A stretch of 64,000 nucleotides of DNA from Pristiophorus japonicus (lineage: Eukaryota), in assembly GCF_044704955.1 (NCBI RefSeq), contig NC_091985.1, forward strand, positions 203,732,001-203,796,000, written 5' to 3'. Under the pieces are notes generated by a model, which was not told the DNA's origin, ran no database searches, and saw only the letters and a program-made list of their open reading frames with translations. Positions 8,349-39,339 of the stretch are shown one piece after another; the stretch's first letter is position 1, and each line of letters opens with the position of its first letter. The position numbers were made by a program, and so were the translations under genes.

Positions 8349-8933
8349 GTTACAGCAGTGACAGATAAGAAAGGTGTTGAATTAAACGATGGGATGAAGG
8401 CAGCATCAGGGCGGAAAGACAGTGAGGGTCCCTTGCCCTCATAGAAGGACTCCCAAGTCCTGATCAGAAGTGACCCTCAGGCAATCTCAGTTATAAACCG
8501 GTCAATGTCTCGAACATGTAGAAATCTAGATCGACATACACAGCAGCGAGTTTGCTGTTCAGATTATTGAATGTATATATAGGAAAAAACGTGAATTAAC
8601 TTTCCTTATAAGTTTGGCCGTCATTAACCATTTTTGCCTGAGAGCAGAACAGAAACATAAAGAATGGAGTATAAATCGGGAGGGGATGTCATTGATGACC
8701 GAATTCAAGAATTTGAGATTGTGGCGAGCAATAAATCTGATTGGATGTTTAAAGGGACCAATCAGAGAGATACAGAACAATGGAAATTGACAACGGAGCT
8801 AATGAACCAATCACAATCGTTACCTTTACCCATCCCTTATTAGCATAGGGATGTGGGCGGAGTGTGGGGCTGCCTACATAATACGAGCCCGGAGCAGACT
8901 TTGCTTCATATCTATAACTGACTGAACAAGACG

Positions 8934-9308
<375 letters not shown>

Positions 9309-10272
9309 AACTCCACGCTGTCCTGACAACAAACCCCAAACACAACGGCTCTTTTAAGAGCCACCCACAACATCATTGAAAGAGCTGCACAAACACATCA
9401 CCCTTTAGACTGAATTTACTGTAATTATTTCCCGAACAAATGTGTGTGAGAACCTTTGTAGTTCCAGCTGTAGATTTAGTTTTGAATTCTCATAAAAAGC
9501 TTCACTGACCGGCTTGACCTTGGCGTCTCTGGAATTTGCTGCAGTGAGTAAACTACAAACACGGGCCCTGGTCGCTTTCCCTTTGTTCTCAGACTCGTTC
9601 ATTCACAGCGCCTACCGACGAATTTATTTTGGGGGGCGGGGAAACTCCGATTTCAGTCGCATTCTCACTCAAGCCCTTTTTACATGTTTTTTTTATTCCG
9701 TTGCGCTCAGTCCGTTTATTAACCCGAGACTCCCCACAGTGTAACAACCCAGAATGGGAGTTTTTAGAGACTAGAACAGGGGCAGTTTGAACACCCTGTC
9801 CCTCTTCTCTTTTTACAAAAGGACTCTCGGTTCTGGTCTCACTCCCACAGCAGCTCCTGTGAAAAGAAGTTCACTTTTACAAAGATGGAGCTGGAATGTA
9901 TCCCGTTACAGAATCAGTGGGGACTGAGTCCCGCCCGTTACAGACAGTTTGAAACTGAAGCCGAATTTAATCCTGATTGTAACAGGCTGGAATTTGCAAG
10001 GGGAACATGGAATAAGACAAAAGGAAACAAAGTGTTTTAAAGTATTTGGCTAATGGTGAAGTTGCTAACATAATCCGCAATTTTAACAATTATTGGCGGG
10101 ATTTTTGAATTTAAAAAATCGTCAGGTTCTGGCTGTTGAGAACCAGTAATTTCCGCCCTCCTTTCATTGGTGGACTAGACAGACTGTGATTGGTCATCGG
10201 AAACAGCCAATGAAATCCACGATAGAGTGACCAATCACAAGTTCGCTCCCTGCATCCCTCCAGAAGGTATAA

Positions 10273-10716
<444 letters not shown>

Positions 10717-11151
10717 AGCGGACAAGATTTAAACTTATAACCCAAAGGCTCTTTTCAGAGCCACTCACAATATATGTGAAAGGGCTGCTTACTGTATTAA
10801 TGGAGACCTTGTTTTCAGGTACCAATAAAGTGGTCTATTTCAGACCTGTATGCGGGAGTTTTCAGTTCCTGGTATCTGCATTATGGTTTTCTGCTCACAC
10901 AAACTGTTCTAGTTAGCAACTAATAATTAATCTACAGTTGTCAGAGACTCAAAAATTGTATAAATACCGCAACCGGTTCCCTAAATATTATTTAATCTAT
11001 CAATGAAAGCTGTATGAAGAAAGTCGGCGGTTATTAAAAGGGCCTAGTTTAATTCTGGTCTGGTTTGAGAGTTTGAATGCTGGTTCTGTTTCCGGGATCT
11101 CCGGTCGTTCCGGATTGTGTATTTCTCTCCTAAGCCGGTCAGTTTAGGCCG

Positions 11152-11290
11152 ACACTAAGCAGCCAAGCACAAGACAGTCACTGTCATGGATGTGCTGTAT
11201 ACTCTGAAACGGCAGGGCCGCACTTTCTATGGATTCAACGCGACCCTCTTCCCCCAAGCAGAAAGCAAAGGCTCGTCTAAGTGCCACCCA
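11152..11290 (+). pseudogene. H4: Histone H4 3' fragment with degenerate stem-loop
   Basis: Reads [25 protein letters not shown], followed by GGCTCGTCTAAGTGCC-ACCCA at 11270-11290. Confidence 0.88.
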
Positions 11291-11448
11291 CCGCCTCACG
11301 GGGGGAGAGGAGGGGAGGGAGGGAGATACAGTTCATTTACATTTTGTTCGGTATAGATATATATTTTTCGCCAAGGTCTATATGTTTTAAATCAGCATAT
11401 GCACGATGGACGGAATATCCTTTTAGTTTCAGAATTATAGACATTTAT

Positions 11449-11752
11449 CATAGAAGCTTACAACACGGAATGAGGCCACTTCGGCCCATCGTGTCCGTGC
11501 CGGCCAACAAAAGGCTATCCAGCCGAATCCCACTTTCCAGCTCTCGGTCCGTAACCCTGCAGGTTACGGCACTTCAAGTGCACGTCCAAGTAGTTTTAAA
11601 TGTGGTGAGGGTTTCTGCCTCTACCACCCTTTCAGGCAGTGAGTTTCAGACCGCAGCCTGCGTGAAGATATTTCCCCTCTAAATCCTCTACCAATTACTT
11701 TACATTTATGCCTCCTGTGCTAAGGGAAATAGGCCCTTTACGGCACAGAAGG
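11449..11752 (-). mobile_element. CR1-like LINE 3' end fragment (same family as 38085 and 54170)
   Basis: Matches the 54178-54490 and 63650-63960 tails. Absent from the paralogous spacer near 7015. Confidence 0.8.
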
Positions 11753-12054
11753 TACGGCATATTCCAGGTGAAGGTAACACTGAAACAACTAATGTAGTTA
11801 CAGCAGTGACAGATCAGAAAGGTGTTGAATTAAACGGTGGGAGGAGAGCGGAAGGACAGTGAGGGCCTTTTGCCTCATAGAAGGACTCCCAAATCCTAAC
11901 CAGAAGTGACCCTCAGACAATCTCGGTTACAAACCGGTCAATGTCTGTCGAACATGTAGACATCTCGATCGATAAAGAACAGAATATGGCTCGGGAGGGG
12001 ATGTAACTGATGACCTAATTCAAGAATTTGAGATTGTGGCGAGCAATAAATCTG

Positions 12055-12196
12055 ATTGGATGTTTAAAGAGACCAATCAGAGAATTACAGAACAATAGAA
12101 ATTGACAACGCAGCGAGTGAACCAATCACAATCGTTGCCTTCACCCATCCCTCATTAGCATAGGGCTGTGGGCGGAGTGTGGGGCTGCCTATATAA
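12055..12196 (+). promoter_or_regulatory. H2B promoter: CCAAT boxes, octamer variant ATTAGCAT, GC box, TATATAA
   Basis: ATTGG ~12055, CCAAT ~12073 and 12122, ATTAGCAT 12154-12161, GGGCGG ~12170, TATATAA 12190-12196. Same layout upstream of 8934. Confidence 0.8.
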
Positions 12197-12248
12197 TGCG
12201 AGCTCCGAGCTAAGTTTAGGTCATGTCTGCGTCGGATTGAACAAAACG

Positions 12249-12626
12249 ATGCCTGAAGAGAAGAAATCAGTTACTGCCAAGAAAGGCGCCAAGAAAGTGA
12301 TCAAGAAAACACCACCGAAGGGCGGTAAGAAGCGCAGGAAGTCGAGGAAGGAGAGTTACTCCATCTACATCTACAAAGTGATGAAGCAGGTTCACCCCGA
12401 CACCGGCATCTCCTCCAAGGCCATGGGCATCATGAACTCTTTTGTGAACGATATTTTTGAGCGCATCGCGGGTGAGGCTTCCCGCCTGGCCCATTACAAC
12501 AAGCGATCCACCATCAGCTCCCGGGAGATCCAGACCGCCGTGCGCCTGCTGCTGCCCGGGGAGCTGGCCAAGCACGCCGTGTCGGAAGGGACAAAGGCGG
12601 TAACCAAGTACACCAGCTCCAAGTAA
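12249..12626 (+). CDS. H2B: Replication-dependent histone H2B
   Basis: Intact MPEEKK...[26 protein letters not shown]...KYTSSK. Stem-loop 12667-12682 and HDE GAAAGAGCTG. Confidence 0.97.
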
Positions 12627-13471
12627 AACTCCACTCTGTCCTAATACAACAAACCAGAAACACAACGGCTCTTTTAAGAGCCACCCACAACGTCTCTGAA
12701 AGAGCTGCACAAACACGTCACCCTTTAAATTCAATTTGCTGTAGTTATTTCCTGAGCAAGTGTTTGACAACATTTAAAGTTCCAGCTGTAGATTTAGATT
12801 TGAATTCTCAGATAAGCGGTTTTACTGTCCGGTTCAACCTTAGCTTCTCTGATGAATTTCCCTCCCAGTAAAGTGCACACACTGTCGCTGGCCGCCTGCC
12901 AATGAATTATGATCTTGTTTTAGGAGGTGAAATTCAGACTTTAGTCACCTCATTCTCTCTCAAGCCCTTTACAATATAAAAAAAATTCCAGTTCGGGTCA
13001 ACCCGCTTATTAATCCGAGATTCCAAGTGCAACGGCCCAGACTGGGAGTTCTTACAGAGTCCAGAACAGGGAGTTTGAATCCTGTGTCCCTCTTCTCTTT
13101 TCACAGAAGAACTCCCAGTTCTGGTCTCAATCCCGCCTGTGCGGAGGATCGATCCATGATCTGTGATTCCCAAATTGTACAAAGATTGAGCTGGAATGTG
13201 TCCCGTTACAGAACGTATGAAACTGAACCCGAATTTAAACCTGATTGTAACATCCTGGAATTTTGAAGGTAATATGGAATACGGCAAAAGGAAATAAAAA
13301 GTGTTTGGAAATCTTTGGCTAATGGTGAATTTATTAACATAATCCGCATTGTAAAAATTATTGGCGGGGTTTTTGAAATTGAAGATTCGTTGGAAGTCGA
13401 ACAGTAATTTTCGCCCTCTTTTCATTGGCAGGCGAAGCAGACGGTGATTGGTCAGCGGAAAAGACCAATGA

Positions 13472-13975
<504 letters not shown>

Positions 13976-14116
13976 AGCGGACAAGATTTAATCTAATAAC
14001 CCAAAGGCTCTTTTCAGAGCCACCCACAGGATCTGTGAAAGGGCTGCTTACTGTCTTAATGGAGTCAGAGACCTTTAATTCATGTACCGATAGATTGGCC
14101 TGTTTTAGACCTGTAA

Positions 14117-14380
14117 ACATAGAAAATAGGTGCAGGAGGCGGCCATTCGGCCCTTCAAGCCTGCACCACCATTCAATAAGATCATGGCTGATTATTCCCT
14201 CAGTACCCCTTTTCTGCTTTCTTTCAATATCCCTTTAGCCATAAGGGCCACATCTAACTCCCTCTTGAATATATCTAACGAACTGGCATCAACAACTCTC
14301 TGCGGTAGGGAATTCCACAGGTTAACAACTCTGAGTGAATAAGTTTCTCCTCTCAGTCCTAAATGGCTTACCCCTTATCC
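14117..14380 (-). mobile_element. CR1 3'-end fragment
   Basis: Same tail as 2394-2690. Apparent GTA duplication relative to the empty site at ~10845. Confidence 0.85.
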
Positions 14381-15077
14381 GTATGCGGGAGTTTTCAGTT
14401 CACGGTCTCTGCAGTACGGTTCTCTGCTCACACATACACTCTTGCCGTTAACAGCGAATAATTGAACTACAGTTGTCACTCAACAATTGTATAAATACCG
14501 CCACCGGTTCTTTAAATATTCTTTAATCTGTCTGAAAACGAGAGAGTCGGCGATGATGAATTAATGTAGTAATAAAAGGGCCTAGTTTAATTCTGGTCTG
14601 GTTTGAGATAGTTTGAATGCTGGTTTCGTTCTCGGGAGCTCCGGCCGTTCCCGGGCTCTTTATTTCTCTGCTAAGCCGGTCAGTTTAGACCGCACTGCAC
14701 AACACATACAGGATCCGGGTCAATTGCAGTGCTTCCCAGATCTGCCTGCCCCCATTCTCCGGCAACACCGAATAGGGAAATCTGTGTTCTGCCCCGGGGA
14801 ACTTGGGGTCAGAGCGACGCAAAGCCGATGTCAGTTTCCGAAAATATTAAAGGGCTCATCAGTTAATCGTCAATAACTCACATGTGAACTGAGCTGGTAT
14901 ATGAACACACGAGCAGTAATCAGTCCCACACCCTCTGCCCGTCCCTACAATAGGTTAATGAACAACACGAAACTCTGGTTACAGGAGATCGCAGCTCTTT
15001 CCTTTGCTGATTTGGTGGCTCTGAAAAGAGCCGTTGTTGCACTTGGTGCTGAAGCTTCGAGCCGAGGCAGGGGGAGT

Positions 15078-15614
<537 letters not shown>

Positions 15615-16099
15615 TCAAGTTTGAACCAAGCACCGAGAGTGAAAATGAAGGGTGGGGATTACTGGGCCCTGATTGGCTGAACTGAAACTGACAGTTGGTC
15701 AATTTCAAAAATCCCGCCAATTTCAGAATATCAACCAACAGAGATTAAATAAAATCTAATTTCCCGCCAGCAATTTAAGAATCCCGCTCTTTATAACGGC
15801 GATTGTGCCCCATTATAAGTCACCAATCCCATTCTGTCACATTCCGGTTTGAATTCTGTTCCATTCCATGATCCGTCTGTACCGGGCGGGAATAAATCCC
15901 CGGTCATTGCTTCCTGTAAACATAAAGTCCCGCATCAATCCCGCCAGTGCCGTCCCATTTAACCGATTCTCACACAGAAACCGCACATGACAGGAATTAT
16001 CTGTGAGGGGAGACTGTAATGTCTGGGACTGTGTATCCTGCTCGGTAGTTGTGACTGTCAGCCGGAATTTTTGATCTCTCATATTTACAATAGTTGTAA

Positions 16100-16392
16100 A
16101 ATATTTAATAATTCCCATATTCCTACAGCGACTACACTCCAAAAGTACTTCATTGGTCTTGTTCATTGGATGTGTTCGGGAGGGAGTTGGATGTGGTCCT
16201 TGCGGCTGAGGGGGGGCGGGGGTCGGGGAGTGGAGGTGCTGAAGTGGGTGATCAGCTGTGATCTTGTTGAATGGCGGTGCAGGCTCGAAGGGCCGAATGG
16301 CCTATTCTACTCCTGCACATATTTTCTGTTTCTATGTCTTGAGACGTTCGGTGGTCGTGAAAGGCGCTATATAAATCCAAACCTTTCTTTCC
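16100..16392 (+). mobile_element. SINE/L2-type tail with a nested CR1 3' tail
   Basis: GTGAAAGGCGCTATATAAAT-type L2 tail at ~16357-16392 and a GGCTCGAAGGGCCGAATGGCCT CR1 tail at ~16225-16337. Confidence 0.6.
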
Positions 16393-16529
16393 ATTAATTA
16401 AACAGCCGAAACCATTTCCCAACCCTACTGTCCGCGTTCCGATCCCCAGGTCGCTGCTCTCTCTGTGAACCGGTGGGTGGCTCTTAGAAGAGCCTTTGTG
16501 TTGTGATTGGGGGAAAAGGGTCGAGTTAT

Positions 16530-16853
<324 letters not shown>

Positions 16854-17647
16854 TCACTCAAACAGCTGCTGAATGAGAAGTGAACTGCTGCCGGCTCCTT
16901 TTTATAGAGCCGGAGCCGACCTGACTGAGAAAGCGCAGAGTGAGAGAGGCGGGAAGGGGAGGAGACAGTCAAGATTGACAGACAGAGCAGTGAGCGGCCT
17001 CTGATCTTCCAGCTCCGCCTCCAGCTTTCTGCAGCCGCCAATTTCAAACCGTTTTCCGACAATAGAACCGAAACAGACTCGGAATTTATATTCAAAGCTT
17101 CCAGGAACCAGAAGCTTTTAAATAAGGTCCCGTTACAATTAACAATCGCGAATATTCCCGCCTATATACAGCCCTTTCCCTGTCAATCTCAGATCTTGTT
17201 CCATCTCCCCACACTTTCTCTCACAGACGGGTTCAGCAATTTACAAACACCTTATTCCAGCTGATTTGGAGAATGTGGTGTTTGGGGTTTGAGTTGTGAG
17301 GCGGGGTATCTCCGCCAGTATCACCGTCTCACAGACTCTCTCCCTGAAAATGACAATGAGCAGGAACTGAGACTGGAGCTGAACACATCCCCAGTTACAG
17401 TGAGGTCCGGGCCGGACATCCCGTTCTCAATGTGTGTTTTATTGCAGACACTGGGGGAGGGGTGAGTGCAGCCAATGTCAGCGAGTCACCAGGGATCCTG
17501 GCTTCATGTTCAATGATTTCTGTCTGAAATCTGAGCCCGGCCCCGGGACAGGGATCATTTGATTCGGGGATCAACTTTTTTCTGAGAGATGTGGGTGGCT
17601 CTGAGAAGAGCCTTTGGGTTCAGATGTTTACAAGTTGCACTTTTTAT

Positions 17648-18346
17648 TTACTTTTTGAGCGCTGCTTTCTTGGGTTTTGCTGATTTGGCCTTGGCCCTCG
17701 GTTTTTCCACCTTTTTGGCCACCTTCACCTTTGCGCCCGAGGCCTTCTTGGGGCTCTTGGGCGTCGCCGCTGTCGCCTTCTTCCCAGCCGCAGCTTTCGC
17801 TGTCTTTTTTACTGTTGGCGCCTTCTTGGTGCTCGTTTTCTTGGCCGGAGAGTTCTTGGCTGCTGGTTTCTTGGCCGGAGATTTCTTGGCTGCTGGTTTC
17901 TTGGCCGGAGATTTCTTGGCTGCTGGTTTCTTGGTCGGAGATTTCTTGGCTACTGGTTTTTTGCCTGGAGATTTCTTGGCTGCTGGTTTCTTCACCTTCG
18001 TTCCCACTTTCCCCTGGTTTTCCTTCTTAGCGACTCTGAAGGAACCCGAGGCGCCCGTGCCCTTGGTCTGCACCAGGAAGCCATTTGTCACATTCCTCTT
18101 GATACTGAACCTGATCTGGGACCCGCGCTTCTCCACATTCACGCCTTTGGCCGCCAGAGCCTTCTTTATCGCGGACAGGGACATCCCCTTGCGATCGCCG
18201 CCATCGGCCACAACCTTGAGGATCTGTTCGCCCAACGTGGGACCGGCTGGCTTGGAGCGGGGAGCTGGCTTCTTCTTCTTGCTGAGAGCCTTGGTTTGAG
18301 CGGCGGCGGCAGGAGGAGCCGTTTCGGCGGCTGCACTGTCAGTCAT
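17648..18346 (-). CDS. H1: Replication-dependent linker histone H1 (232 aa)
   Basis: Winged-helix core ending [13 protein letters not shown] and a Lys/Ala/Pro tail with 5 x 30-bp [10 protein letters not shown]-type repeats (17841-17990). Stem-loop 17597-17612. Confidence 0.95.
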
Positions 18347-18424
18347 GTCCGCGACTCTGTGGAAAATCTCTCTGACAGTCAGAGCTCGGTCAGAAATGAA
18401 ACGGGAGGCGGCGGCACAGAGCAA

Positions 18425-18497
18425 CTTAAAGGCAGCGAGCGGACGGGGCGGAGACATCCTGCTGTCAGCTCCCCGCCCCTCCAGCCTCTCTGTGTTT
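18425..18497 (-). promoter_or_regulatory. H1 promoter: H1-box AAACACA, GC boxes, weak TATA-like TTTAAG
   Basis: TGTGTTT at 18491-18497 is AAACACA on the minus strand. GGGCGG ~18447, CCCCGCCCC ~18471. Confidence 0.7.
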
Positions 18498-19299
18498 CTC
18501 TCTCCTCATTAACTGTCCGATTCCAATTCAACCCGGGCCCTCCAGATTCCCAGACTGGCCTCTTTCTGTCCCGAAGACCGGGATGTTTGTTGTCGAGAAA
18601 GCTTCCTCCGAATTGAAGGCAGCAATTTAGATTTAAACCCGTTTCATTGCTGCACTGATCGCGCTCTCTCACCCGATTGCGGACATTTTCTTCGTTTTTC
18701 GATTGAAATTTGAAATCACATCAAACTTAACGTTTAATTCCCACTTTAGCCCTGAGCAGGGCAGCAGGGCGATCCTGTGACAGGAAAATCTTTGAATTTT
18801 ATACAAGAGGGACTCTGGAATCCGGCGATGAGACGGATACACAAACACAGTGACATTAGTCTCACCGGCCCGCCCCTTTAACACACTCTCGCTCACACAA
18901 TGTTCACATCTGCACATTCACAGCACAAACTATCCCAGATTTACAGCTCCCAGCACAGGGTTACCTCTCCGCTCGGCCTGTGCTGCCGATTCTCGGGGTT
19001 TTTTAAGTTTCCCAGCTCAGTAAGTGTTAAACACTCTGAGGTCGGCGCTCCTCAGTGTCTGTTCCCCAGATTCAGGGGCAGGAGCCAATCACAGCTGTGG
19101 CTGGCTTAACCTATATATGCTGTTAAGTTGTTACATTGTTCGTACGCAGAAATATGTTTGATTAACGTGAAAATAGAAATTATGAGTTCACCGCCCATCC
19201 ACCCTCTCTTTGTCTGTCTCTATCCTCCGAAAATGAGGGACATATCACAGTAACTGGTGAACTATCCATACCATGCTCACCACCCAGAGATGGCTATCA

Positions 19300-19520: not shown

Positions 19521-19652
19521 TATCATAGAAAATAGGTGCAGGAGTAGGCCATTCGGCCCTTCAAGCCTGCACCACCATTCAATATGATCATAGCTGATCA
19601 TGCAACTTCAGTACCCCATTCCTGCTTTCTCTCCATACCCCTTGATCCCTTT

Positions 19653-22600
19653 CATAGAAACATAGAAAATAGGTGCACGAGTAGGCCATTCGGCCCTTCT
19701 AGCCTGCACAGCCATTCAATGAGTTCATGGCTGAACATGCAACTTCAGTACCCCATTCCTGCTTTCTCGCCATACCCCTTGATCCCCCTAGTAGTAAGGA
19801 CTACATCTAACTCCTTTTTGAATATATTTAGTGAATTGGCCTCAACAACTTTCTGTGGTAGAGAATTCCACAGGTTCACCACTCTCTGGGTGAAGAAGTT
19901 TCTCCTCATCTCGGTCCTAAATGACTTACAACTTATCCTTAGACTGTGACCCCTAGTTCTGGACTTCCCCAACATTGGGAACATTCTTCCTGCATCTAAC
20001 CTGTCTAAACCCATCAGAATTTTAAACGTTTCTATGAGGTCCCCTCTCATTCTTCTGAACTCCAGTGAATACAAGCCCAGTTGATCCAGTCTTTCTTGAT
20101 AGGTCAGTCCCGCCATCCCGGGAATCAGTCTGGTGAACCTTCGCTGCACTCCCTCAATAGCAAGAATGTCCTTCCTCAGGTTAGGAGACCAAAACTGTAC
20201 ACAATACTCCAGGTGTGGCCTCACCAAGGCCCTGTACAACTGTAGCAACACCTCCCTGTCCCTGTACTCAAATCCCCTCGCTATGAAGGCCAACATGCCA
20301 TTTGCTTTCTTAACCGCCTGCTGTACCTGCATGCCAACCTTCAATGACTGGTGTACCATGACACCCAGGTCTCATTGCACCTCTCCTTTTCCTAATCTGT
20401 CACCATTCAGATAATAGTCTGTCTCTCTGTTTTTACCACACATTTATCCACATTATACTTCATCTGCCATGCATTTGCCCACTCACCTAACCTATCCAAG
20501 TCGCTCTGCAGCCTCATAGCATCCTCCTCACAGCTCACACTGCCACCCAACTTAGTGTCATCCGCAAATTTGGAGATACTACATTTAATCCCCTTGTCCA
20601 AATAATTAATGTACAATGTAAATAGCTGGGGCCCCAGCACAGAACCCCACTAGTCGCCGCCTGCCATTCTGAAAAGTACCCATTTACTCCTACTCTTTGC
20701 TTCCTGTCTATCAACCAGTTCTCAATCCATGTCAGCACACTACCCCCAATCCCATATGCTTTAACTTTGCACATTAATCTCTTGTGTGAGACCTTGTCGA
20801 AAGCCTTATGAAAGTCCAAATATACCACATCAACTGGTTATCCCTTGTCCACTCTACTGGAAACATCCTCAAAAAATTCCAGAAGATTTGTCAAGCATGA
20901 TTTCCCTTTCACAAATCCATGCTGACTTGGACCTATCATGTCACCTCTTTCCAGATGCACTGCTATGACATCCTTAATAATTGATTCCATCATTTTACCC
21001 ACTACCGATGTAAGGCTGACCGGTCTATAATTCCCTGTTTTCTCTCTCCCTCTTTTTTTAAAAAGTGGGGTTACATTGGCTACCCTCCACTCGATAGAAA
21101 CTGATCCAGAGTCAATGGAATGTTGGAAAATGACTGTCAATGCATCCGCTATTTCCAAGGCCACCTCCTTAAGTACTCTGGGATGCAGTCCATCAGGCCC
21201 TGGGGATTTATCGGCCTTCAATCCCATCAATTTCCCCAACACAATTTCCCGACTAATAAGGATTTCCCTCAGTTCCTCCTCCTTACTAGACCCTCTGACC
21301 ACTTTTATATCTGGAAGGTTGCTGGTGTCCTCCTTAGAGAATACTGAACCAAAGTACTTGTTCAATTGGTCTGCAACCCCTTAAGTATCATTCGCCAATC
21401 TATCCTAGCCAATTCACGCCTCATACCTTCAAAGTTACCCTTCTTTAAGTTCTGGACCATGGTCTCTGAATTAACTGTTTCATTCTCCACCCTAATGCAG
21501 AATTCCACCATATTATGGTCACTCTTCCCCAAGGGGCCTCGCACAACGAGATTGCTAATTAATCCTCTCTCATTACACAACACCCAGTCTAAGATGGCCT
21601 CCCCTCTAGTTGGTTCCTCGACATATTGGTCTAGAAAACCATCCCTTATGCACTCCAGGAAATCCTCCTCCACCGTATTGCTTCCAATTTGGTTAGCCCA
21701 ATCTATGTGCATATTAAAGTCACCCATTATAACTGCTGAACCCTTATTGCATGCACCCCTAGTTTCCTGTTTGATGCCCTCCCCAACATCACTACAACTG
21801 TTTGGAGGTCTGTACACAACTCCCACTAACGTTTTTTGCCCTTTGGTGTTCTGCAGCTCTACCCATATAGATTCCACATCATCCAAGCTAATGTCCTTCC
21901 TAACTATTGCATTAATCTCCTCTTTAACCAGCAATGCTACCCCACCTCCTTTTCCTTTTATTCTATCCTTCCTGAATGTTGAGTACCCCTGGATGTTGAG
22001 TTCCCAGCCTTGATCATCCTGGAGCCATGTCTCCGTAATCCCAATCACATCATATTTGTTAACATCTATTTGCACAGTTAATTCATCCACCTTATTGCGG
22101 ATACTCCTTGCATTAAGACACAAAGCCTTCAGGCTTGTTTTTTTAACACCCTTTGTCCTTTTAGAATTTTGCTGTGCAGTGGCCCTTTTTGTTCTTTGCC
22201 TTGGGTTTCTCTGCCCTCCACGTGTACTCATCTCCTTTCTGTCTTTTGCTTTTGTCTCCTTTTTGTTTCCCTCTGTCTCCCTGCATTGGTTCCCATCCCC
22301 CTGCCATATTAGTTGAACTCCTCCCCAACAGCACTAGCAAACACTCCCCCTAGGACATTGGTTCCGGTCCTGCCCAGGTGCAGACCGTCCGGTTTGTACT
22401 GGTCCCACCTCCCCCAGAACCGGTTCCAATGCCCCAGGAATTTGAATCCCTCCCTGCTGCACCACTGCTGAAGCCACGTATTCATCTGTGCTATCCTGCG
22501 ATTCCTACTCTGACTAGCACGTGGCACTGGTAGCAATCCCGAGATTACTACTTTTGAGGTCCTACTTTTTAATTTAGCTCCTAGCTCCTTAAATTCGTTT

Positions 22601-23791
22601 TGTAGGACCTCATCCCTTTTTTTTATCTATGTCGTTGGTACTAATGTGCACCACGACAACTGGCTGTTCTCCCTCCCTTTTTAGAATGTCCTGCATCCGT
22701 TCCGAGACATCCTTGACCCTTGCACCAGGGAGGCAACATACCATCCTGGAGTCTCGGTTGCGGCCGCAGAAACGTCTATCTATTCCCCTTACAATTGAAT
22801 CCCCTATCACTATCGCTCTCCCACTCTTTTTCCTGCCCTCCTGTGCAACAGAGCCAGCCACAGTGCCATGAACTTGGCTGCTGCTGCCCTCCCCTGATGA
22901 GTCATCCCTCTCAACAGTACTCAAAGCAGTGTATCTGTTTTGCAGGGGGATGACCACAGGGGCCCCCTGCACTACCTTCCTTGCACTGCTCTTCCTGCTG
23001 GTCTTCCATTCCCTATATGACTGTGGACCCTTCACCTGTGGTACGACCAACTCGTTACACGTGCTACTCACGTCATTCTCAGCATCGTGGATGCTCCAGA
23101 GTGAATCCACCCTCAGCTCCAACTCCACAACGTGGTCTGTCAGGAGCTTGAGCTGGACACACTTCCTGCAGATATAGTCGTCACGGACACTGGTGTCGTC
23201 CCTGAGTTCCCACATGGTACAGGAGGAGCATAACATGTGACCGAGCTGTCCTGCCATGACTTAACCCTTAGATAGGCAACAACAATGCTAAAGTTTACTC
23301 ACTGTTTTTGAAGAGAAAAAAGAAAAACGAAAAACTACTCACCAATCACCAGCCAATCACTTACCCCCTTGGCTGTGATGTCACCTTTCTGTTTCTTTCT
23401 ACTTCTTTTTTGCCTTCTCCCTGTAGCTGCACCGGCACGCCTCTCCCCGCACCTCTCGCGGACTCTGGGCCCCGGACTCCCTGCTGTGCCTTTTATCGGC
23501 CTCTCACCGAAGTCCCGACTGCCTCTCCATGCACCTCTCGCGGACTCTGGGCCCCGGACTCCCTGCTGTGCCTTTTATAGGCCTCTCACCGAAGTCCCGA
23601 CTGCCTCTCCATGCACCTCTCGCGGACTCTGGGCCCCGGACTCCCTGCTGTGCCTTTTATAGGCCTCTCACCGAAGTCCCGACTGCCTCTCCACATCCCT
23701 CTCGCCGACTCTGGGCCCTGGACTCCCTGCTGTGCCTTTTATAGGCCTCACACCGAAGTCCCGACTGTCTCTCCACGCACCTCTCGCCGAC
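19653..23791 (-). mobile_element. Essentially full-length CR1 LINE: ORF1 (Cys-rich finger, zipper, SGNH esterase) + ORF2 (APE + RT), inactivated by indels
   Basis: ORF1 23257-22309 (CSSCTMW..YICRKC, IVIGDSIVRG, PDGLHL). ORF2 22231-19745 with a ~0.4-kb internal deletion at ~21375 relative to the 2394 copy. (TTTCTATG)n tail. Confidence 0.95.
23449..23791 (-). promoter_or_regulatory. 82-bp tandem monomers (4.2 copies) at the CR1 5' end, each with a TATA box and initiator
   Basis: CCTTTTATAGG (minus: CCTATAAAAGG) at 23571, 23653 and 23735, with a variant at 23489. Period 82. Confidence 0.8.
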
Positions 23792-24914
23792 GCCATCAGG
23801 GCCATATCTAACTCCCTTTTGAATATATCTAACAAACTGGCCTCAACAACTTTCTGTGGTAGAAAATTCCACAGGTTAACAATTCTCTGAGTGAAGAAGT
23901 TTCTCCTCATCTCGGTCCTAAATGGCTTACCCCTTATCCTTAGACTGTGACCTCTGGTTCTGGACATCCCCAACATCGGGAACATTCTTCCTGCATCTAA
24001 CCTGTCCAATCCCGTCATAATTTTATATGTTTCTATGAGATTCCCTCTCATTCTTCTAAATTCCAGAGAATATAAGTCTATTCTATCCAGTCTTTCTTCA
24101 TATGTCAGTCCTGCCATCCCGGGAATCAGTCTGGTGAACCTTTTCTGCACTCTCTCAGTAGCAAGAATGTCCTTCCTCAGATTAGAAGACCAAAACTGAC
24201 ACAACATTCAAGGTGTGACCTCACCAAGGCCCTGTGCAACTGCAGTAAGACCTCCCTGCTCCTATTGTGTTGTACTCATAAGTGTTTCCACATCACGCGA
24301 AATAACAGAATCCCGCCTTCACAGACAGTACAAGAGAAAGGGGAAAGCGACAGAGAGAGAAAGAGTGGGCTGAGAGAGAGAGACAGGGGAGTGCGAGGCA
24401 GGACGGTGAGACACAGAAACGTGCACAGTATCAGTTCTAGACTGACCTGTGAGGTCCGGTTTTATCCTGAAAGATCCCATTGGAGGGACAGAAGATGCAG
24501 TCCCCTCTCTCACTGATATTGTACCACAGACAGACACATTATTCGTCCCACACTGCGGAACAGTGTCAGAGAGTGAGAGAAACAAGGTCCCACATTTAAC
24601 CCTCGCTTGCCTGTTGTACTCTCTGTAATCTTGCAGCTCAGGGCCGTTCGGTATTACTCTCAGTGACCGAATGTTTCACTCTGACTAAATTAAACTGGGA
24701 CAGTTTCTGTCAGATATTGACTCCTGCACAGTTCCAGCAAACACTCCTACTCTGCCGTCCCTCCGATGTTTCTGCAGGATTACTTTGTGAGGACAGCTCA
24801 CGAAGAGAAAAAAACCCTGCACGGAATGATCACAAATTGAGCATCTCAAAGGGGCAAGGCCCCCAGCTTTAAACATTCCCTGGCCTTGCCCCCCAGGCCC
24901 AGTTCCTTAGCTCA

Positions 24915-26050: not shown

Positions 26051-26069
26051 TCCGAATTAAACATGTTTG

Positions 26070-27880
26070 TGGTGCTGAATGGCCGCCTCCTATTCCTGTG
26101 TAACAGGCCCGAGGGGGCTGATAACCGTCTCCTGTTCCTAAATTAACAGACTGGAGATACTGAGTGGCCTTCTCGTGTTCCTAATGTTATAAACACGAGG
26201 GACTTATTGGCCTCCTCCTGTTCATAGGTACCACCTCTAGGGGCAGAATGACCTCCTCCTGTACCTATGTATCAGGCTAGAATGGGATGAATGGCCTCCT
26301 TTAGTTCTGATGTAACAGGTTCCAGGGGCTGAATAGCCTCCTCCAGTTCCTATGTAACAAGCTTGAGGGGCTGAATGGCCTCCTCCTGTTCCCATGAAAC
26401 AATCCCATGGGGATGATTGCCTTTGTCCTATTCCTAATGTAACAGACCCAAGGGGCAGAATTGCATCATCCTATTGCTTTTTAAATCCAGTTGCTGAATA
26501 GCCCTCTCCAGTTCCTAATATAATCGGCTCGAGGAGCTGAATGGCCCTCTCCAGTTCCTAATGTAATAGGCTCAAGGAGCTGAATGGCCCTCTCCAGTTC
26601 CTAATGTAATAGGCTCGAGGAGCTGAATGGCCCTCTCCAGTTCCTAATGTAATAGGCTGGAGCAACTGAATGACCCGCTCCAGTTCCTAATGTAATAGGC
26701 TCGAGGAGCTGAATGGCCCTCTCCAGTTCCTAACGTAATAGGTTCGAGGAGCTGAATGACCCCCTCCAGTTCCTAATGTAATAGGCTCGAGGAGCTGAAT
26801 GGCCCTCTCCAGTTCCTAACGTAATAGGCTCGAGGAGCTGAATGACCCCCTCCAGTTCCTAATGTAATAGGCTCGAGCAACTGAATGACCCGCTCCAGTT
26901 CCTAATGTAAAAAGCTCGAGGAGCTGAATGGCCCTCTCCAGTTCCTAACGTAATAGGCTCGAGGAGCTGAATGACCCCCTCCAGTTCCTAATGTAATAGG
27001 CTTGAGGAGCTGAATGGCTTTCTCCAGTTCCTAATATAATAAGCTCGAAGAGCTGAATGGCCTCCTCCTGCTCCTATATAACATGCAGGAGGGGCTGAAT
27101 GGCCTCCTCCAATTCCTCTAACAGGCTTGAGGGGATGAATGGTCACCTCCTGTTCCTGGTTAACAGTTCCGAGGGGTGGAATTGGCCTACTCCTATTCCT
27201 ATGTAACAGACCCGAGGGACTGAGTGGTCTTCTCCTGTTCCTAATGTAAGAAGCTCGAGGGGATGAAAAACGTCCTGCTGTTCCCATGTCACAGAATCAA
27301 AGGCTGAGTGGTTTGCTTGTGTTTCTAATGTTAGAGAGGCTGAATGGACTCTTCTTCTTCCCACATAACAGAATGGAAGGGCAGAATGGCATCCTCCTGA
27401 TCCAATGTAACAGGCTCAAGGGGAAGAATGGCCTCATCCTGTTCCTGTCTAACAACATTCGGTGCTGAACAGCCACCTCCTGTTCCTGTGTAATAAGTTA
27501 GATGGGATGAGTGGCCTCTTCCAGTTCCAATATAACATGTGTGACTGGCTTATTGGCCTCTTCCAGTTCCTATAACATTGTCGGTGGGCTGAATGGCCTC
27601 CTCCAGTTCCTACATAACACGCTTGAGGGTCTGAATGGCCTACCCCTGTTCCGATGTGAAAGGCTCCAGAGGATGGATGGCCGCCTCTATTCCTGTGTAA
27701 CAGTATCCAGTCGATGCATCGCCTCCACCAATTCCTTTATAGCAAGGCTGAGGTGCTGAATGCCCACCTCCTGTTACTTATGTAACAGGCTCGAGGGACT
27801 GAATGGCCTCCTCCTGTTCCTTATGTAACAGGCTCGAAGGGACTGAATGGCCTCCTCCTGTTCCTTATGTAACAGGCTCG
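26070..27880 (+). repeat. 42-43-bp satellite (~40 units) matching the CR1 3' terminus
   Basis: Core GGCTCGAGGAGCTGAATGGCCCTCTCCAGTTCCTAATGTAATA (period 43, 26526-27050) with diverged flanking units. Confidence 0.92.
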
Positions 27881-28399
27881 AAGGTATGATTTGCCTCCAG
27901 GTTCCATGTGCTGAAAGGCCTCCTCAAGTTCACAGATCCAGGGACTGTTCTTCCCCATTGTTTTGGAAATAGCATCGGGCAGTAAACAGGAGCTCACTGC
28001 TTCTTGCCCACCAGCTCTCTGATTGGGCTCCTTGTGCTGATTATGTTTTCTCATCTCGCTCAAATGTTGCTTTCTTTTCCATCACCTCTAGAGTTATTAG
28101 CCAAGTTTGTATCGAGCACATCGTGATCTCACCAGTAACAGCACTTTTCTGATGGTTATCCACGAGGCTGCTTCTGACATTTTCTTCTGCGTAAATGTTA
28201 GCCACCGTAAGTAACTGAAAAGCTTCATTTCTGCAGCAACAACAAACACTTGCATTTATGACAGATACAGAGTGAATCCCACACTCACTCACTGTACCAC
28301 AGACACATATGGTTTATATTATGTACTAATAGCTCGTCTCTACTCAAAATATTTCTGAATCGCATTCATCCAATATAATGAGAGAAAAAAAATCACAGA

Positions 28400-31849: not shown

Positions 31850-33080
31850 TAGCCATATAGATTCTGTCCTTGACCCCTCCAGGACATCCTCTCTCTCCAG
31901 CATTGTAACATTCTCCTTAACCAATACTGCCACATCACCTCCTATCTGTCCTTCCCTATCTTTCCTGAACTCCTATATCCAGGAATATTTAATACCCAAT
32001 CCTGCCCTTTTTGAGCCAGGTCTCTGTTATTGCCATGACATCATATTCCCTGCAGCTCACCAGCCTTGTTTACTATGCTTCATGTGTTTACATACATACA
32101 CCATAAACCCATCTTCGACCATTCTGTGTTCTCTCTTAGTCTGACCCCACCTAATACCTTACTATTTCTTGCTTTGGTGCTATCCGTCTCTCCCAATCCT
32201 TTGTGCCCTTTGTTTTTCCTTTATAATTTTACATTCTGGTGTCCATCCTCCTGCCAACTTAGTTTAAACCCTCCCCAATAGCACTACCAAACCTCCCCGC
32301 AGGGATATTGGTGCCGGCTCTGTTGAGGTGCAACCCGTCCGGCCTGTACAGGTCCCACCTCCCACATAAACGGTCCTAATGCCCCAGGAATCTGAAGCAT
32401 CTCTCCAGCCATGCATTCATCTGCTCTATCCTACTATTTCTATACTCGCTCGCGCATGGCACCGGGAGTAATCTGGAGATTACTACTTTTGAGGTCCTGC
32501 TTTTTAATCTCTTTCCTAACTCCCTATAATGCCTGCAGGATCTCATCCAGTTTCTACCTCTGTCGTTGGTACCAACTTGGACCACGACCTCTGGCTATTC
32601 ACCCTCCCTCCTCACAATGTTCTGCAACCATTCAGTGACATACTTAACCCTAACACCAGGGAGGCAACATACCATCCTGGAGTCACATCTGTGGCCGCAG
32701 AAATACCTGTCTGCTCCCCTGACTATCGAAGTCCCTACCACTATTGCTTTTCCTATCTTCCTCCTTCCTCCTTCCCCCACTGTACAGCTGAGCCACTCGT
32801 GGTGACATGGATTTGGCCCTGGCTATATTCCTCGCCCTCACCAGTACTCAGAACGGAATACTGGTTGGAGAGCGAGATGCAGTAGTGTTTTATATAGATT
32901 TAGCATCAATTCCTGGCTTTGTTAACCTGTCCTGCCACCTCCCAAGAATTTTGCACAGGCATCCCCAGATCTCTCTCTTCTTCCATTCTGTTAACATTGT
33001 ACCATTTGGAATGTATTGTCTCTCATTCTTCCCACCAAAATGGACCACCTCAGACTTCTCTATATTGAATTTTATCTGCA
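31850..33080 (-). mobile_element. Degenerate CR1 ORF1/APE and RT fragments
   Basis: AIVVGTSIVRG..DSRMVCCLPG, VVISRLLPVP, QIKFNIEKSEVVHFG. Confidence 0.8.
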
Positions 33081-33090
33081 CTCCTTTTAC

Positions 33091-34990
33091 AGGGTTTTAG
33101 AAGAGGAGCATTTACCGACTGTAAACTCAAAACAAACATCACGTCAAGATCTGACAGAGTCACACGATTCATCAGGACCTAATTCAATCGGTCCTCGAAT
33201 CATCTGGCATATTAGCGAGTTCACACTCATGACAGACCTTTTAAATCTGAGTGTGGGAAGACCTTCAAAATCTACAAGTACCCAAAGAGACACCAGCGCC
33301 GAGACACTGGGGGAGCCTATTCACCTGCCTGTGTGAGGGACGGGATTCACTCGATCACCGCTGCGATTAACACCAGTGAATTTGCAGTAGGGAGGGACCG
33401 TTAACCCGCTCCATTAGTGGGAAGGGATTAATTGCACCATCCGTGCTGCTGAGACACCAGCATGTCCACTCTGATGAGGGTCGGTTGACCTGCTTCGTGT
33501 TTTTGAAGCGATTCACTTATTCTTCCACCCTCCTGAGACACCAGTTTATGCACAGTGATGAGAAACCAATTAAATGGTCTGACTTTGGAACGAGATTTAA
33601 AAGTTCCCAGGATCTGAAGGGACATCAGCTGGAGAGAATAGGAGAGATTCTGTTCACCTGCTCCGTGTGCGGGAAGGAGTTCATTCAGTCATCCCACCTG
33701 CTGAGGCACCAGTGAGTTCATGGGGGGGACATGCTGGTGAAACATTCTGACTGTGGGAAAAGCTTTAAAAGGTCTCAGGAGCTGAAGCAATTCCAGCTGG
33801 AGGGAGCTGGACAGAGACCGTTCACCTGCTCCATGTGTGGGAAGGGATTCAAACAGTCATCCAGCCTGCTGACACACCAGAATGTTCACACTGACGAGAG
33901 ACCATTTAAATGTTCTGACTGTGTGAAGAGCTTTAAAAGCTTCGGGAACCTGCTGACACACCAGCGTGCTCACACTGGGGAGAGGCCATTCACCTGCTCC
34001 GTGTGTGAGAAGAGATTCAGTCTCTCCTCCACCCTGCTGACACACCAGCGTGCTCACACTGGGGAGAGGCCATTCACCTGCTCTGTGTGTGAGAAGAGAT
34101 TCAGTCTCTCCTCCACCCTGCTGACACACCAGCGTGCTCACACTGGGGAGAGGCCGTTCACCTGCTCCGTGTGTGAGAAGAGATTCAGTCTCTCCTCCAC
34201 CCTGCTGACACACCAGCGTGCTCACACTGGGGAAAGGCCGTTCACCTGCTTCGTGTGTGAGAAGAGATTCACTCGGACATCCCACCTGATGACACACCGG
34301 CGAACTCATACTGATAAGAGACCATTTACATGTTCTGACTGTGGGAAGAGCTTTAAAAGCTCTGGGGATCTGAAGGGACACCAGCGAGTTCACACTGATG
34401 AGGGGCCGTTCACATGTTCTGTTTGTGGGGAGAGCTTTAAAAGCTCCGGGAATCTGAAAGGACACCAGCTTGTTCACACCGATGAGAGACCTTTTAAATG
34501 TTCTGACTGTGGGAAGAGCTTTAAAAGCTTCGGGAATCTGATGGCACACAAGCGTGATCACAGTGGGGACAGACTATTTCACTGCTCCGTGTGTGGGAAG
34601 GGATTTACTCGATCCTCGACTCTGCTGACACACCAGCGAGTTCACACTGAGGAGAGGCCGTTCACCTGCTCTGTGTGTGGGAAGAGCTTCACTCAGTCCT
34701 CGACTCTGCTGACAGACCAGCGAGTTCACACTGGGGAGAGGCCGTTCATCTGCTCTGTGTGTGGGAAGTGATTCACTCGGCTGACCCACCTGCGGACACA
34801 CCAGTGAGTTCACACTGGGAACAGGCCAGTGAAACGTTCGGGCATTGGGAAACAAGTTTAAACGGTCCCAGGAGCTGAAGAGACACCAGCTGGAGAGAGC
34901 GGGAAAGAGACTGTTCACCTGCTCTGTGTGTGAGAAAGAATTCCCTCGGTCCTTGACTCTGCTGACACACCAGCGAGTTCACACTGTTCT
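33091..34990 (+). pseudogene. C2H2 zinc-finger array gene, disrupted at both ends; residual 346-aa ORF 33731-34771 with 10 intact fingers
   Basis: TGERPF linkers and CxxC-x12-HxxxH repeats, splice acceptor TTTTACAG at ~33090, stops at ~33334, 33713 and 34769. No KRAB seen. Confidence 0.85.
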
Positions 34991-36389
34991 GTAACACAGG
35001 GCCCTGCAGAAAGCTGGGCCCACATGAACATGGAACGGATGAATGTTTTATAAATTCTTGTACTGCTGATAATCTTTCAAACTGTTGTGCTGATAATTCC
35101 CTTTATTTGACTTTTCATGCTATTACATAGAATATACAGCACAGAAACAGGCCATTCGGCCCAACCAGTCTATACTGGTGTTTATGCTCCATTCGAACCT
35201 CTTTTGACCCTACTTTAATTAACCCGATGAAAATAACTTTGTATAGCTTTGTCCCTTGTGTTTATCTGGCTTCCCCTTAAATGCATCTGTGCTATTCACC
35301 TCAACGACTCTTTGTGGTAGTGAGTTCCACATTCTAACCACTCTCTGAGTAAAGAAGTTTCTCCTGAGTTTCCTCCTGGATTTATTAGTGACTATCTTAT
35401 ATTTATGGCACCAGAAATATGTTGAGCTTCTGTTAAGCTGAGCAGTATGTCGTTGTGCTTTACTTGTTCTGATGATATTAAATAAATGAAGTTATCGGAG
35501 CTGCAAGATAATTGCAGCTTTGGATTAGCAACCAACAGTATAAACAACTTAGCACTGTGTTCCTTCATGGTAATACTTCACGTTAACAAGTTCTGAAACT
35601 ATTTATAGGGATGAGAAAACAAGAGACGTAAAACACTTCAAATATCTGACCCATGATTACAAACGCAGAGGTTAATTATCGCCACTAATTTTCACTTTAA
35701 AAAAAAAAAAGTATGAGCAGGTCCTCTCATTTTAAAACAAAGTTTAAAAAAAAACAGTTGGAGTGAGTTAAGTATCAAAGCTTTAACTACAGCTAACAAG
35801 CTCATTTTTTCTTGTTGAGAAATTAATGGTTTGAGATACACAGGAACAAAGGATGGTTAAAAACATTAGAAAGCAAAATAAATCAGGAAGTAATTGGTGC
35901 CACCGAGCTTGGGTTTTTTAAAGCCTGGTTGTAAGAGGAAGCTAATGGTTTGAAGTTGTGGAAAGTAATGAGAGTTAGGTCAGGACACTGTGATAGGAGC
36001 ATTGATTACAACACAATGATATAACCCAGCTGTGTACAGTCCTCAGTTCAACATAGTCATATCTCCCAGAAACCTTGCTTTTTCCTAGAATATAGGGGGC
36101 ACAGTTCTGATCCACATTAGTGCCAATATCAAGTAAATAAAAACATTGAGCTACAGATTAGCGTGTTTAAATGTTCAAAGGATTCGATAGGTTAGATATG
36201 GAGAAACTATTTTATCATGAAGGGAAATAATCTTAAAATTAGAGCTAGGCCATTTAGGAGGGAAATCAGGAAACACTTTTTCATATAAAAGGCTGTAAAA
36301 AAAACTGGAATTATCTCCCCAAAAGGCTGTGAATGCTGGGATAATTGGAGCTTTCAAGACTGAGATCGATAATATTGTTAGTTAATGGT

Positions 36390-36662
36390 ATCCAGGGATA
36401 TAGAGATAGAGATGGGTCCTGTGGAAGGATCCAGTGATATAGAGATAGAGAGGGGCCCTGTGGAAGGATCCAGGGATATAGAGATAGAGAGGGGTCCTGT
36501 GGAAAGATCCATGGATATAGAGATAGAGAGGGACCCTGTGGAAAGATTCAGGGATATAGAGATAGAGAGGGGCCCTGTGGAAGGATCCAGGGATATAGAG
36601 ATAGAGAGGGGCCCTGTGGAAGGATCCAGGGATATAGAGATAGAGAGGGGCCCTGTGGAAGG
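36390..36662. repeat. 39-bp minisatellite x7 (ATCCAGGGATATAGAGATAGAGAGGGGCCCTGTGGAAGG)
   Basis: Exact period of 39. Begins inside a decayed CR1 3' end (36170-36400). Confidence 0.92.
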
Positions 36663-37334
36663 AGGGAGGAAGGAGGACAGTAGGAGTATGTTTGAGATTG
36701 TGTGTATGTATTGGCACATGTGGCAGAGCCTGGTCTCCAGTTGTCTTGGATCCCCTTACCACTGGACCAAGACCTTGCTCCGTCCAGTCCGTGTGGTGGC
36801 TGGTGTGCAACGGCCAGCTCACATTAAAATAATTCAGGCACAGGCATTTTAAAATGTTTAAACCGTTTAAAATGAGTTCATTGGTCACCTGGGTGCTCAT
36901 CTTTGGTCTGGAAGCAAGTCATCATCGACCCCGAGGGACTGCTTATGATGATGATTTTCTGAGGAATGAAACATTACTGAGCCCCATGTTATGGGATGAA
37001 GTGCTAGACAAGTAAAGGCCCAGTGTCTGGGTGTGAATCTAATAATAACCTCAGGGACCGTATAGGTGCGATAACCAGACGGGCTTGTGGTTATAGTCTG
37101 GTCACAGATGGACAAAACTCCCGGAATTAACAGGAGTTCAGGAGACGGTCAATGGATAGGTCCAAACAATCCCATTCCCTGAATTTAAGTCATTGTCAGT
37201 TGGAACAGACTCCAGAAGATCGCCTGTGAAGCCACTGTACTTCTATTCTGCAGACTGAGGGAATTATCACAATCTATGTTCTTGTAAGCTTGATTACCTG
37301 ATGTCCAAAACCCTTGGACCCTGGATCATTCAAG

Positions 37335-37485
37335 TCAACCTCAGTGTGTGGAAAGGGATTCACTGGGGTATCTCACCTGCTGACACACCAGAATTTCCAC
37401 ATCATGACTGCAGTGGTTCAATTGCATTATTTCCAGTGCTTTTAAACACATCCAGGACTGAACACATTCAGGCAACTGGGGCTTG
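37335..37485 (+). pseudogene. Terminal zinc-finger plus 3' UTR fragment
   Basis: CAGTGTGTGGAAAGGGATTCACT...CACCTGCTGACACACCAG, followed by a 3' UTR like those at 43860 and 49450. Confidence 0.65.
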
Positions 37486-39265: not shown

Positions 39266-39339
39266 TGTCTCTGTCTCTGTCTTGTGTTTAATTCCAGGAA
39301 CACTATTCCAGAGTCATTCTGGAATGTAAAAATAAACTC

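Follow-up and report, generated by a model that had tools for sequence, protein, structure and literature searches.

Tandem TATA monomers as probable consumable upstream promoters of a CR1 LINE in the shark Pristiophorus japonicus

Introduction

LINE promoters are generally described as internal and TATA-less, since copying would leave behind a promoter upstream of the transcription start. Internal promoters are reported for most of the LINE 5′ UTRs that have been characterised (PMC2881922), and PMC6454616 states both that retrotransposon promoters must be internal and that it is unclear how arrays of promoter monomers regrow. The stretch of 64,000 nucleotides analysed here, referred to as the window, contains a CR1 LINE from Pristiophorus japonicus that opens with a tandem array of 82-bp units carrying TATA boxes. 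A first-pass annotation of this locus suggested that the family employs disposable external promoters, one TATA monomer being sacrificed in each round of transcription while the downstream ones are carried along. The locus thus raises the question of where transcription of such an element starts, and how a promoter that is not copied into the RNA could be kept over generations.

Results

The window copy, its array and its junctions

The window element spans 23791 to 19653 and is inserted into the 3′ fragment of an older CR1. The features of the locus are given below in the order in which the element is read.

23792..24258, minus strand, older CR1 3′ fragment (host), portion 5′ of the insertion
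23791..23794, minus strand, 5′ junction; 23791 is at offset 34 from the lost TATA, 23794 is the predicted start of the lost monomer
23439..23791, minus strand, 5′ tandem array, 4.3 copies of an 82-bp monomer of family type 'A' (TRF)
23736..23743, minus strand, TATA box 1, outermost retained, TATAAAAG, from the sequence
23710..23715, minus strand, CCCAGA of monomer 1, from the sequence; predicted start A at 23712, with equal phase at 23630, 23548 and 23466
23654..23661, minus strand, TATA box 2, from the sequence
23572..23579, minus strand, TATA box 3, from the sequence
23490..23497, minus strand, TATA box 4, mutated to GATAAAAG in the window copy, intact in five paralogs compared
23258..23438, minus strand, unique 5′ UTR, 'tether'-like, with a CRE-like site, two ATTGG boxes and donor-like and acceptor-like splice sites
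22309..23257, minus strand, ORF1, an N-terminal Cys-rich region and a GDSL/SGNH esterase in intact relatives, frameshifted near 22612
19745..22333, minus strand, ORF2, APE endonuclease and RT, about 394 nt deleted at 21374, further breaks
19653..19744, minus strand, 3′ UTR ending in an 8-bp microsatellite tail of TTTCTATG units, without poly(A)
19524..19652, minus strand, older CR1 3′ fragment (host), portion 3′ of the insertion

The array lies on the minus strand, which is the LINE-sense strand, and was returned by TRF with a period of 82 and 94% matches. The 82-bp unit of the first-pass annotation is therefore real, although its 4.2 copies from 23449 become 4.3 copies with an inner edge at 23439. 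The GC content of the array is 64% and its observed/expected CpG ratio 0.75, against 0.33 for the element body. On the minus strand CCTATAAAAGG starts at 23745, 23663 and 23581 and CCGATAAAAGG at 23499, and CCCAGA starts at 23715, 23633, 23551 and 23469. The first T of the TATA and the A of CCCAGA are 31 nt apart, and a hypothetical fifth 82-bp unit would place this A at 23794, both as first annotated. The variant reported for the innermost copy is present in the window copy (L001), but it is a late mutation absent from the five other paralogs compared. An ancestral, selected inactivation by this GATA variant was for that reason rejected for the window copy.

The element had been described as stopping exactly 3 nt short of the predicted start. 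Positions 23793-23792, at offset 32 from the lost TATA, form a 2-nt GC microhomology with the host sequence, and a monomer variant of the paralogs matches both bases, so that the copy is 1 to 3 nt short. Independent type-'A' copies begin at or just past the A of CCCAGA. The nesting inside an older CR1 holds: the sequence at 23798-24258 is 88% identical to the window element's own 3′ part, and directly beyond the 3′ tail, at 19652, the host CR1 continues, having lost one base and gained no duplication.

The insertion lies in a region of histone and zinc-finger genes on contig C9 and has been segmentally duplicated into 13 copies, one of them the window copy; the best 13 BLAST matches are duplicates of this one insertion. 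Within the window the region comprises 6300-18600 and 33480-50300, with a histone gene cluster (H2A, H2B, H3 and H1-like frames) and C2H2 zinc-finger arrays, and it is duplicated about 12-13 times along contig C9 at 203-225 Mb. A separate tandem array of 43 copies of a 43-bp unit occupies 26060-27900; its unit is similar to the CR1 3′ end region, and it is possibly a minisatellite derived from a LINE tail.

Identity and coding capacity of the element

The window copy is full-length, as first annotated, in the sense that both ends are present, but not in coding capacity: with about 394 nt deleted from ORF2 and a broken ORF1, it is dead. In intact relatives ORF1 is a frame of 316 codons that contains a GDSL esterase domain, and ORF2 one of 1002 codons that encodes APE and RT. 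The Pfam families Exo_endo_phos and RVT_1 were found in the window pieces as well as in the intact 1002-codon frame of the relative L301, and Lipase_GDSL_2 was found in ORF1 of L301 with E=4e-14; the broken window ORF1 piece alone gave no Pfam family match. The 8-bp microsatellite tail was present in 18 of 20 whole copies. Candidate target duplications of 4-7 nt were seen at the phased junction in 9 of 17 both-ended copies and were absent in the other 8.

The RT protein matches listed were from bird (about 43-55%), turtle (50-51%), ray (64%) and bamboo shark (75%), and by similarity, not by a tree, the RT appears to group with bird, turtle and cartilaginous-fish CR1 and not with L2. Vertebrate canonical CR1s are described as having an esterase ORF1 or clustering with those that have it, L2 as absent from birds, and chondrichthyan L2 as lacking ORF1 (PMC13343379). 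The RT relatives, the esterase ORF1, the tail and the duplications, read by these rules, identify the element as a canonical CR1 of a cartilaginous fish. HER1 is an entry in a table of PMC3747384.

The subfamilies with 83- and 81-bp monomers (L241-L300 and L301-L308) are very young, with a monomer divergence of 0.3-0.5%, and both ORFs are intact in 8 of 8 B83/B81 copies retrieved whole. Given this low divergence and these intact copies, the family is probably still active. A second, more distant CR1 family is represented at 59900-60560; 10 of its 28 dispersed matches were retrieved with 4 kb upstream and none reached the ORF1 start, which says nothing on its 5′ end. Two diverged ORF1 fragments in the window (32262-32801 and near 58216-58796), both decayed, had no TATA array in the 600-700 nt upstream.

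The array is a trait of the family

Two 22-mers of the array/body junction had 1,940 and 3,645 exact matches in the 5.9-Gb genome, and an ORF1 26-mer had 8,143. Loci were sampled as the first-listed 90 of the 1,940, 90 of the 3,645 and 30 of the 8,143 places, mostly on contig C1; further loci were 30 of 187 and 30 of 83 copies picked by their innermost monomer, and the best 30 BLAST matches. Orientation was possible for 296 of 300 loci, two arrays ran off their locus, and 257 loci were independent by flank. At least one TATA monomer was found in 178 of the 190 independent copies of the three position-sampled sets (median 3, mean 3.3). That other copies might lack the monomers, considered in the first-pass annotation, is thereby contradicted.

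Arrays contained up to 19 TATAs and units of 57-148 bp, and 689 monomers from 197 loci fell into 50 clusters. The sole block invariant among the 14 commonest monomer types is GAGGCC-TATAAA with the next few bases. Among 934 TATA boxes, 513 were TATAAAGG, 301 TATAAAAG, 46 TACAAAAG and 17 GATAAAAG. Because the boxes were searched for by motif, with up to 2 mismatches allowed, part of this conservation follows from the search itself. In assembled contigs of four sequence sets, at 80% likeness, the array was covered in organisms E and F and uncovered in A and C, the latter saying nothing on presence; such contigs cannot show starts.

The 5′ UTR 'tether' between array and ORF1 is conserved across monomer types. 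Its CRE TGACGTCA is kept in 166 and its two ATTGG boxes in 180 of 194 copies, and a 63-nt intron-like stretch is framed by a donor-like GGTAAG (186/194) and by a pyrimidine tract with YAG (188/194). No precisely spliced copy was found among the 194 examined. The 5′ UTR may act as an enhancer or second promoter, or have a spliced form serving translation only. In several subfamilies (L045, L053, L077, L106, L124, L151 and others) the last array TATA is about 20 nt before the body, which would place its start within the unique UTR; the array-less copies L121 and L122 begin about 35-40 nt past the expected place of that last TATA box.

The 5′ ends are phased relative to a missing TATA

The phase of the 5′ ends was determined by aligning the partial outer monomer to its neighbour and counting the offset from the T of the absent TATA, the type of the lost monomer being inferred from the neighbouring monomers. 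Of 136 arrays with at least two TATAs, 12 were dropped for a low score or an offset of 0, leaving 124. Using a gapped caller, 74 of the 124 began at offset 28-36 from the missing upstream TATA where 14 were expected, and the remaining 50 included 21 at offsets 1-27 and 19 at 37-45. The peak is broad, covering 29-36 with a tail to 42. With a second caller 61 of 109 arrays (135 examined) were phased, against 16.6% under simulated uniform truncation with the same code (p=1e-20). The 5′ ends are accordingly not randomly phased, the outcome that had been named as fatal to the original proposal. No monomer-like sequence was present in the 40 nt upstream of any of the 61 phased arrays. For the monomer type of the window, 19 of 39 arrays began at 30-35, in a set that includes BLAST-chosen loci.

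When 166 arrays were compared over unit lengths of 57-148 bp, the offset from the lost TATA was flat (Theil-Sen slope 0.08, CI 0-0.2), and the distance to the next retained TATA tracked unit length (slope 0.92, CI 0.8-1.0). Taking insertion 5′ ends as a proxy for start sites, the modal offsets of four monomer types were 31, 33, 30 and 32. A pyrimidine-purine (YR) step was present at 49 of 94 peak starts, with 21.9 expected. The BBCABW initiator proposed from the window does fit CCCAGA there, but as a conserved initiator it was rejected, the YR step alone being kept across monomer types. Mouse CAGE data place functional TATA boxes at -29 to -34 of a YR start, with -29 to -32 as the rule and longer distances only where no better-placed YR step exists (PMC1779604); with a peak centre of 33, the 90-bp type falls toward the upper limit of this mouse optimum. 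There was no excess of untemplated G at the 5′ junctions (20 of 72, 22.8 expected), and this lack of a cap-G excess was not taken as refutation since end joining can remove the G.

A small group of copies (L248, L277, L283, L288, L040, L047, L072 and L225) begins inside the TATA A-run at offsets 2-4, within a GGCC-stem hairpin, possibly by microhomology joining or an RT stop. The 94 peak copies also show enrichment of A before the junction (39 against 27 expected at -1; 43 of 94 at -3), which perhaps represents a target preference or added bases.

Spacer variants shift the 5′ end

The young subfamily provides a natural experiment: its 90-, 83- and 81-bp monomers are identical over the 61 nt that precede the next TATA, and only the spacer following the TATA varies among them. 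A downstream, internal element would predict one 5′ end common to the three types. The groups comprised 42, 29 and 25 arrays, respectively, after 11 mixed, 1 other and 2 run-off arrays had been set aside. Median 5′ ends were 57, 52 and 49 nt before the next TATA (n=36, 24 and 17 within 40-66; p=4e-7) and modal 5′ ends 57, 53 and 49 nt. A start at 56-58 was seen in 18 of 42 arrays of the 90-type and in 0 of 54 arrays of the 83- and 81-types (p=2.6e-8), although the sequence there is common to all three, and the 83- and 81-type 5′ ends also differed from each other (p=0.004). Measured from the lost TATA the modes were 33, 30 and 32 nt, falling on C|A, C|A and C|G. Since the 5′ ends shift with the spacer while the downstream 61 nt are identical, the start appears to be set by an upstream, untranscribed element, as it is in TATA-driven Pol II promoters. 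The claim that the start is tied to the lost upstream TATA and not to retained downstream sequence is thus borne out, as far as insertion ends can tell.

Alternative explanations of the phase

Poly(A)-signal cleavage is the rival reading that accords best with a lost upstream A/T hexamer; in it UAUAAA acts as a variant signal on read-through RNA, cleavage follows 25-28 nt later and the downstream piece serves as template. It too predicts a constant distance from the lost A/T-rich hexamer and a preference for CA, and the missing cap-G excess agrees with it. A poly(A) hexamer usually lies about 21 nt before the cut, however, and a U/GU-rich downstream element is needed, against a distance of 30-33 nt and a G/C-rich downstream sequence here; the 81-bp type begins at C|G and not at CA. 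The downstream piece would moreover be uncapped, and cutting at the inner monomers as well would yield mostly TATA-less daughters, the opposite of what is seen. This reading is therefore very improbable. A slightly smaller chance is left to an RT stop or ribozyme cleavage at an RNA structure repeated in each monomer. The monomer RNA is predicted to fold strongly, with a GGCC stem enclosing the TATA loop, and the small group of copies beginning inside the TATA A-run would suit such a stop. Yet the predicted hairpin is alike in the 90-, 83- and 81-bp types, in which the modal 5′ end is at three different places within it, and the TATA stem stops about 20 nt short of the peak; no Rfam family matched at E<=1.

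An internal promoter of the mouse L1 type, in which the start or the 5′ joining point depends on a factor site (cf. YY1) downstream of the start and the TATA is incidental, has precedent in mouse L1 5′ ends that cluster near YY1/AP-1 sites and match CAGE peaks (PMC6454616; PMC9022269). The CpG-richness of the monomers is in line with it, and the rarity of TATA-less daughters suggests activity added by downstream monomers. It is equally hard to credit, given that the 5′ end moves 4-8 nt with the upstream spacer despite the identical downstream 61 nt, that the next retained TATA is farther away the longer the unit, and that the sequence at and after the start varies among types at a constant TATA offset. 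That the array is a minisatellite of this locus, or that arrays grew after insertion and took their 5′ phase by chance, might be suspected because arrays do change after insertion and because the 13 best BLAST matches all stem from one insertion. This has next to no probability: the array/body junction is common to thousands of copies, 257 loci remain independent after removal of shared flanks, the phase departs from simulation at p=1e-20, and the candidate target duplications of 4-7 nt stand at the phased junction in 9 of 17 both-ended copies. The minisatellite reading was considered refuted by the junction-match numbers, the independent loci and the phase simulation.

Loss and regrowth of monomers

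Mosaic arrays form a 5′-nested series (read from the 3′ end: ca, caa twice, caaa three times), which fits the prediction of attrition; inner block sizes also differ. Paralogs with one and the same 5′ junction had 10, 9 and 9 TATAs of different make-up (L124, L126, L128), or 3 and 4 (L137, L138). In the lineage of the window copy, a variant that four paralogs carry in the innermost monomer alone came to occupy three monomers while the number of monomers stayed at four. Of 89 locus-private non-CpG variants, 17 were common to at least two monomers of one array, with about 1.2 expected by permutation. Arrays are thus remodelled in DNA after insertion, a possible route of regrowth. Two adjacent 90-bp monomers with the same rare base change (G000:C5:143547164 and 143547254) are another sign of duplication after mutation.

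Copies without any TATA were fewer than copies with three TATAs (3 and 14 of 60, p=0.013), and equal firing of all TATA boxes from short masters is disfavoured by this difference. Genome-wide, among occurrences of one exact start context 2 led into the body and 31 into a TATA, six of these 31 apparently being duplicates on C9. From the scarcity of TATA-less copies it follows that inner boxes rarely found copies, and as such copies are rarer than equal firing predicts, an extra rule is needed. This may be occlusion by upstream transcription, a need for downstream monomers, or the addition of units during reverse transcription. The sacrifice of one TATA monomer per round, as originally proposed, is supported as regards the loss, but the number lost is at least one and not necessarily exactly one.

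Discussion

The family-wide array, the phased 5′ ends and a phase that follows the lost TATA support the idea of disposable external promoters, and it is very likely that the TATA monomers are upstream Pol II promoters that are consumed in each round and regrown by duplication. Each monomer would be a complete conventional RNA polymerase II core promoter, consisting of a TATA and the nearest YR step 30-33 nt downstream. RNA fired from one TATA would lack that TATA and everything upstream of it and keep all downstream monomers. After target-primed reverse transcription the 5′ end of the daughter would lie about 30-33 nt past the lost TATA, often a few bases shorter, and the daughter would keep working promoters, each with the tail of the previous monomer as its upstream region of about 50 nt. 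At least one TATA would be lost per round, offset by tandem duplication of monomers, which is seen at the DNA level. The 5′ ends would correspond to capped Pol II start sites and TBP would bind the boxes, with outer TATAs favoured and regrowth balancing loss.

In losing the TATA from its RNA the element resembles both TATA-driven core promoters and the U3 promoters of LTR elements. In LTR elements strand transfer restores U3 from the 3′ end, whereas the shark CR1 has no terminal repeat and carries spare copies. In R2/RTE-type LINEs a self-cleaving ribozyme fold at the 5′ end fixes that end relative to downstream sequence; for the shark element no Rfam family matched at E<=1, and its 5′ end is not fixed to downstream sequence. 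The spacing of TATA and insertion 5′ end is that of TATA-driven vertebrate Pol II core promoters, with a TATA 29-34 nt before a YR start (PMC1779604).

The closest parallel is with mouse L1Md. The A, Tf and Gf families have tandem monomers, 2.7-3.1 on average (PMC7778262), near the mean of 3.3 in this CR1, and their phased 5′ ends match CAGE peaks (PMC6454616; PMC9022269); tandem 5′ motifs are described in other mammalian L1s as well (PMC5381506). Both systems have CpG-rich 5′ monomers in variable number and a unique tether to ORF1, and in both the 5′ ends, taken as start sites, keep a phase within the outermost monomer. Regrowth is attributed to duplication in both, stepwise addition, duplication or unequal crossing-over having been proposed for the mouse (PMC6454616). 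The mouse elements belong to the L1 clade, have units of about 200 bp and are described as TATA-less (PMC2894050; PMC7778262), with starts near YY1/AP-1 sites, whereas the shark element is a CR1 with an esterase ORF1, a CR1-like RT, units of 57-148 bp and a TATA in nearly every monomer, its start apparently being dictated by an upstream TATA absent from the RNA. The shark CR1 therefore works like a mouse L1 monomer promoter but is no member of that group. Drosophila HeT-A, 'promoting in tandem', is described as starting in the upstream element (PMC1636488), and there too the promoter is upstream of the start, outside the transcribed unit, with function preserved by the tandem arrangement. In HeT-A the promoter comes from the 3′ end of a complete element lying upstream in a telomeric array, while the shark CR1 has short monomers inside dispersed copies.

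With vertebrate canonical CR1s, as described, the element shares the esterase ORF1, the APE and RT of ORF2 and the microsatellite tail. A figure legend in PMC13343379 and its preprint mentions a 5′ repeated subunit, 1-5 copies of 100-500 bp, in some ORF1(-) elements of the CR1 group, and the main text of PMC13343379 does not contain 'promoter', 'TATA', 'tandem' or 'monomer'. The shark CR1 differs from these elements in being ORF1(+), in its shorter units, in having up to 19 TATAs and in its phased 5′ end. The first-pass annotation knew of no description of such disposable promoters for CR1. No account of TATA-containing 5′ monomers in CR1 or any LINE was found in the literature searched, which was mostly non-subscription papers; shark CR1 consensus sequences that include the array may be present in the supplements of PMC13343379. 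The monomer array, phased ends and regrowth as such are known from mouse L1.

A farther-reaching and rather doubtful extension is that the array acts as a consumable promoter 'fuse' limiting how many successive generations a copy founds. The fuse would be reloaded by DNA recombination and also during reverse transcription, with the element's own RT pairing the cDNA end anew with an inner monomer and so adding units, and the same TATA-cartridge design would lie behind the unexplained 5′ subunits of other CR1-group LINEs across vertebrates. Bearing on this are the scarcity of TATA-less daughters, the inner unit numbers that already vary in very young arrays, and the 5′ subunits reported in other CR1-group elements (PMC13343379). 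If true, it would represent a widespread third answer to retrotransposon promoter loss, beside internal promoters and LTRs.

For the family itself, array regrowth becomes testable, since young intact copies with distinguishable 90-, 83- and 81-bp units exist, and because spacer-only variants shift fossil 5′ ends, insertion ends can read out Pol II start-site rules. Over thousands of insertions the shark CR1 appears to have used ordinary upstream TATA promoters and to have paid for them with spare copies, converging on the monomer design of mouse L1, even in mean number, from a different clade and with a different promoter logic. The thousands of dispersed TATA and CpG cassettes left in the genome may also affect neighbouring genes.
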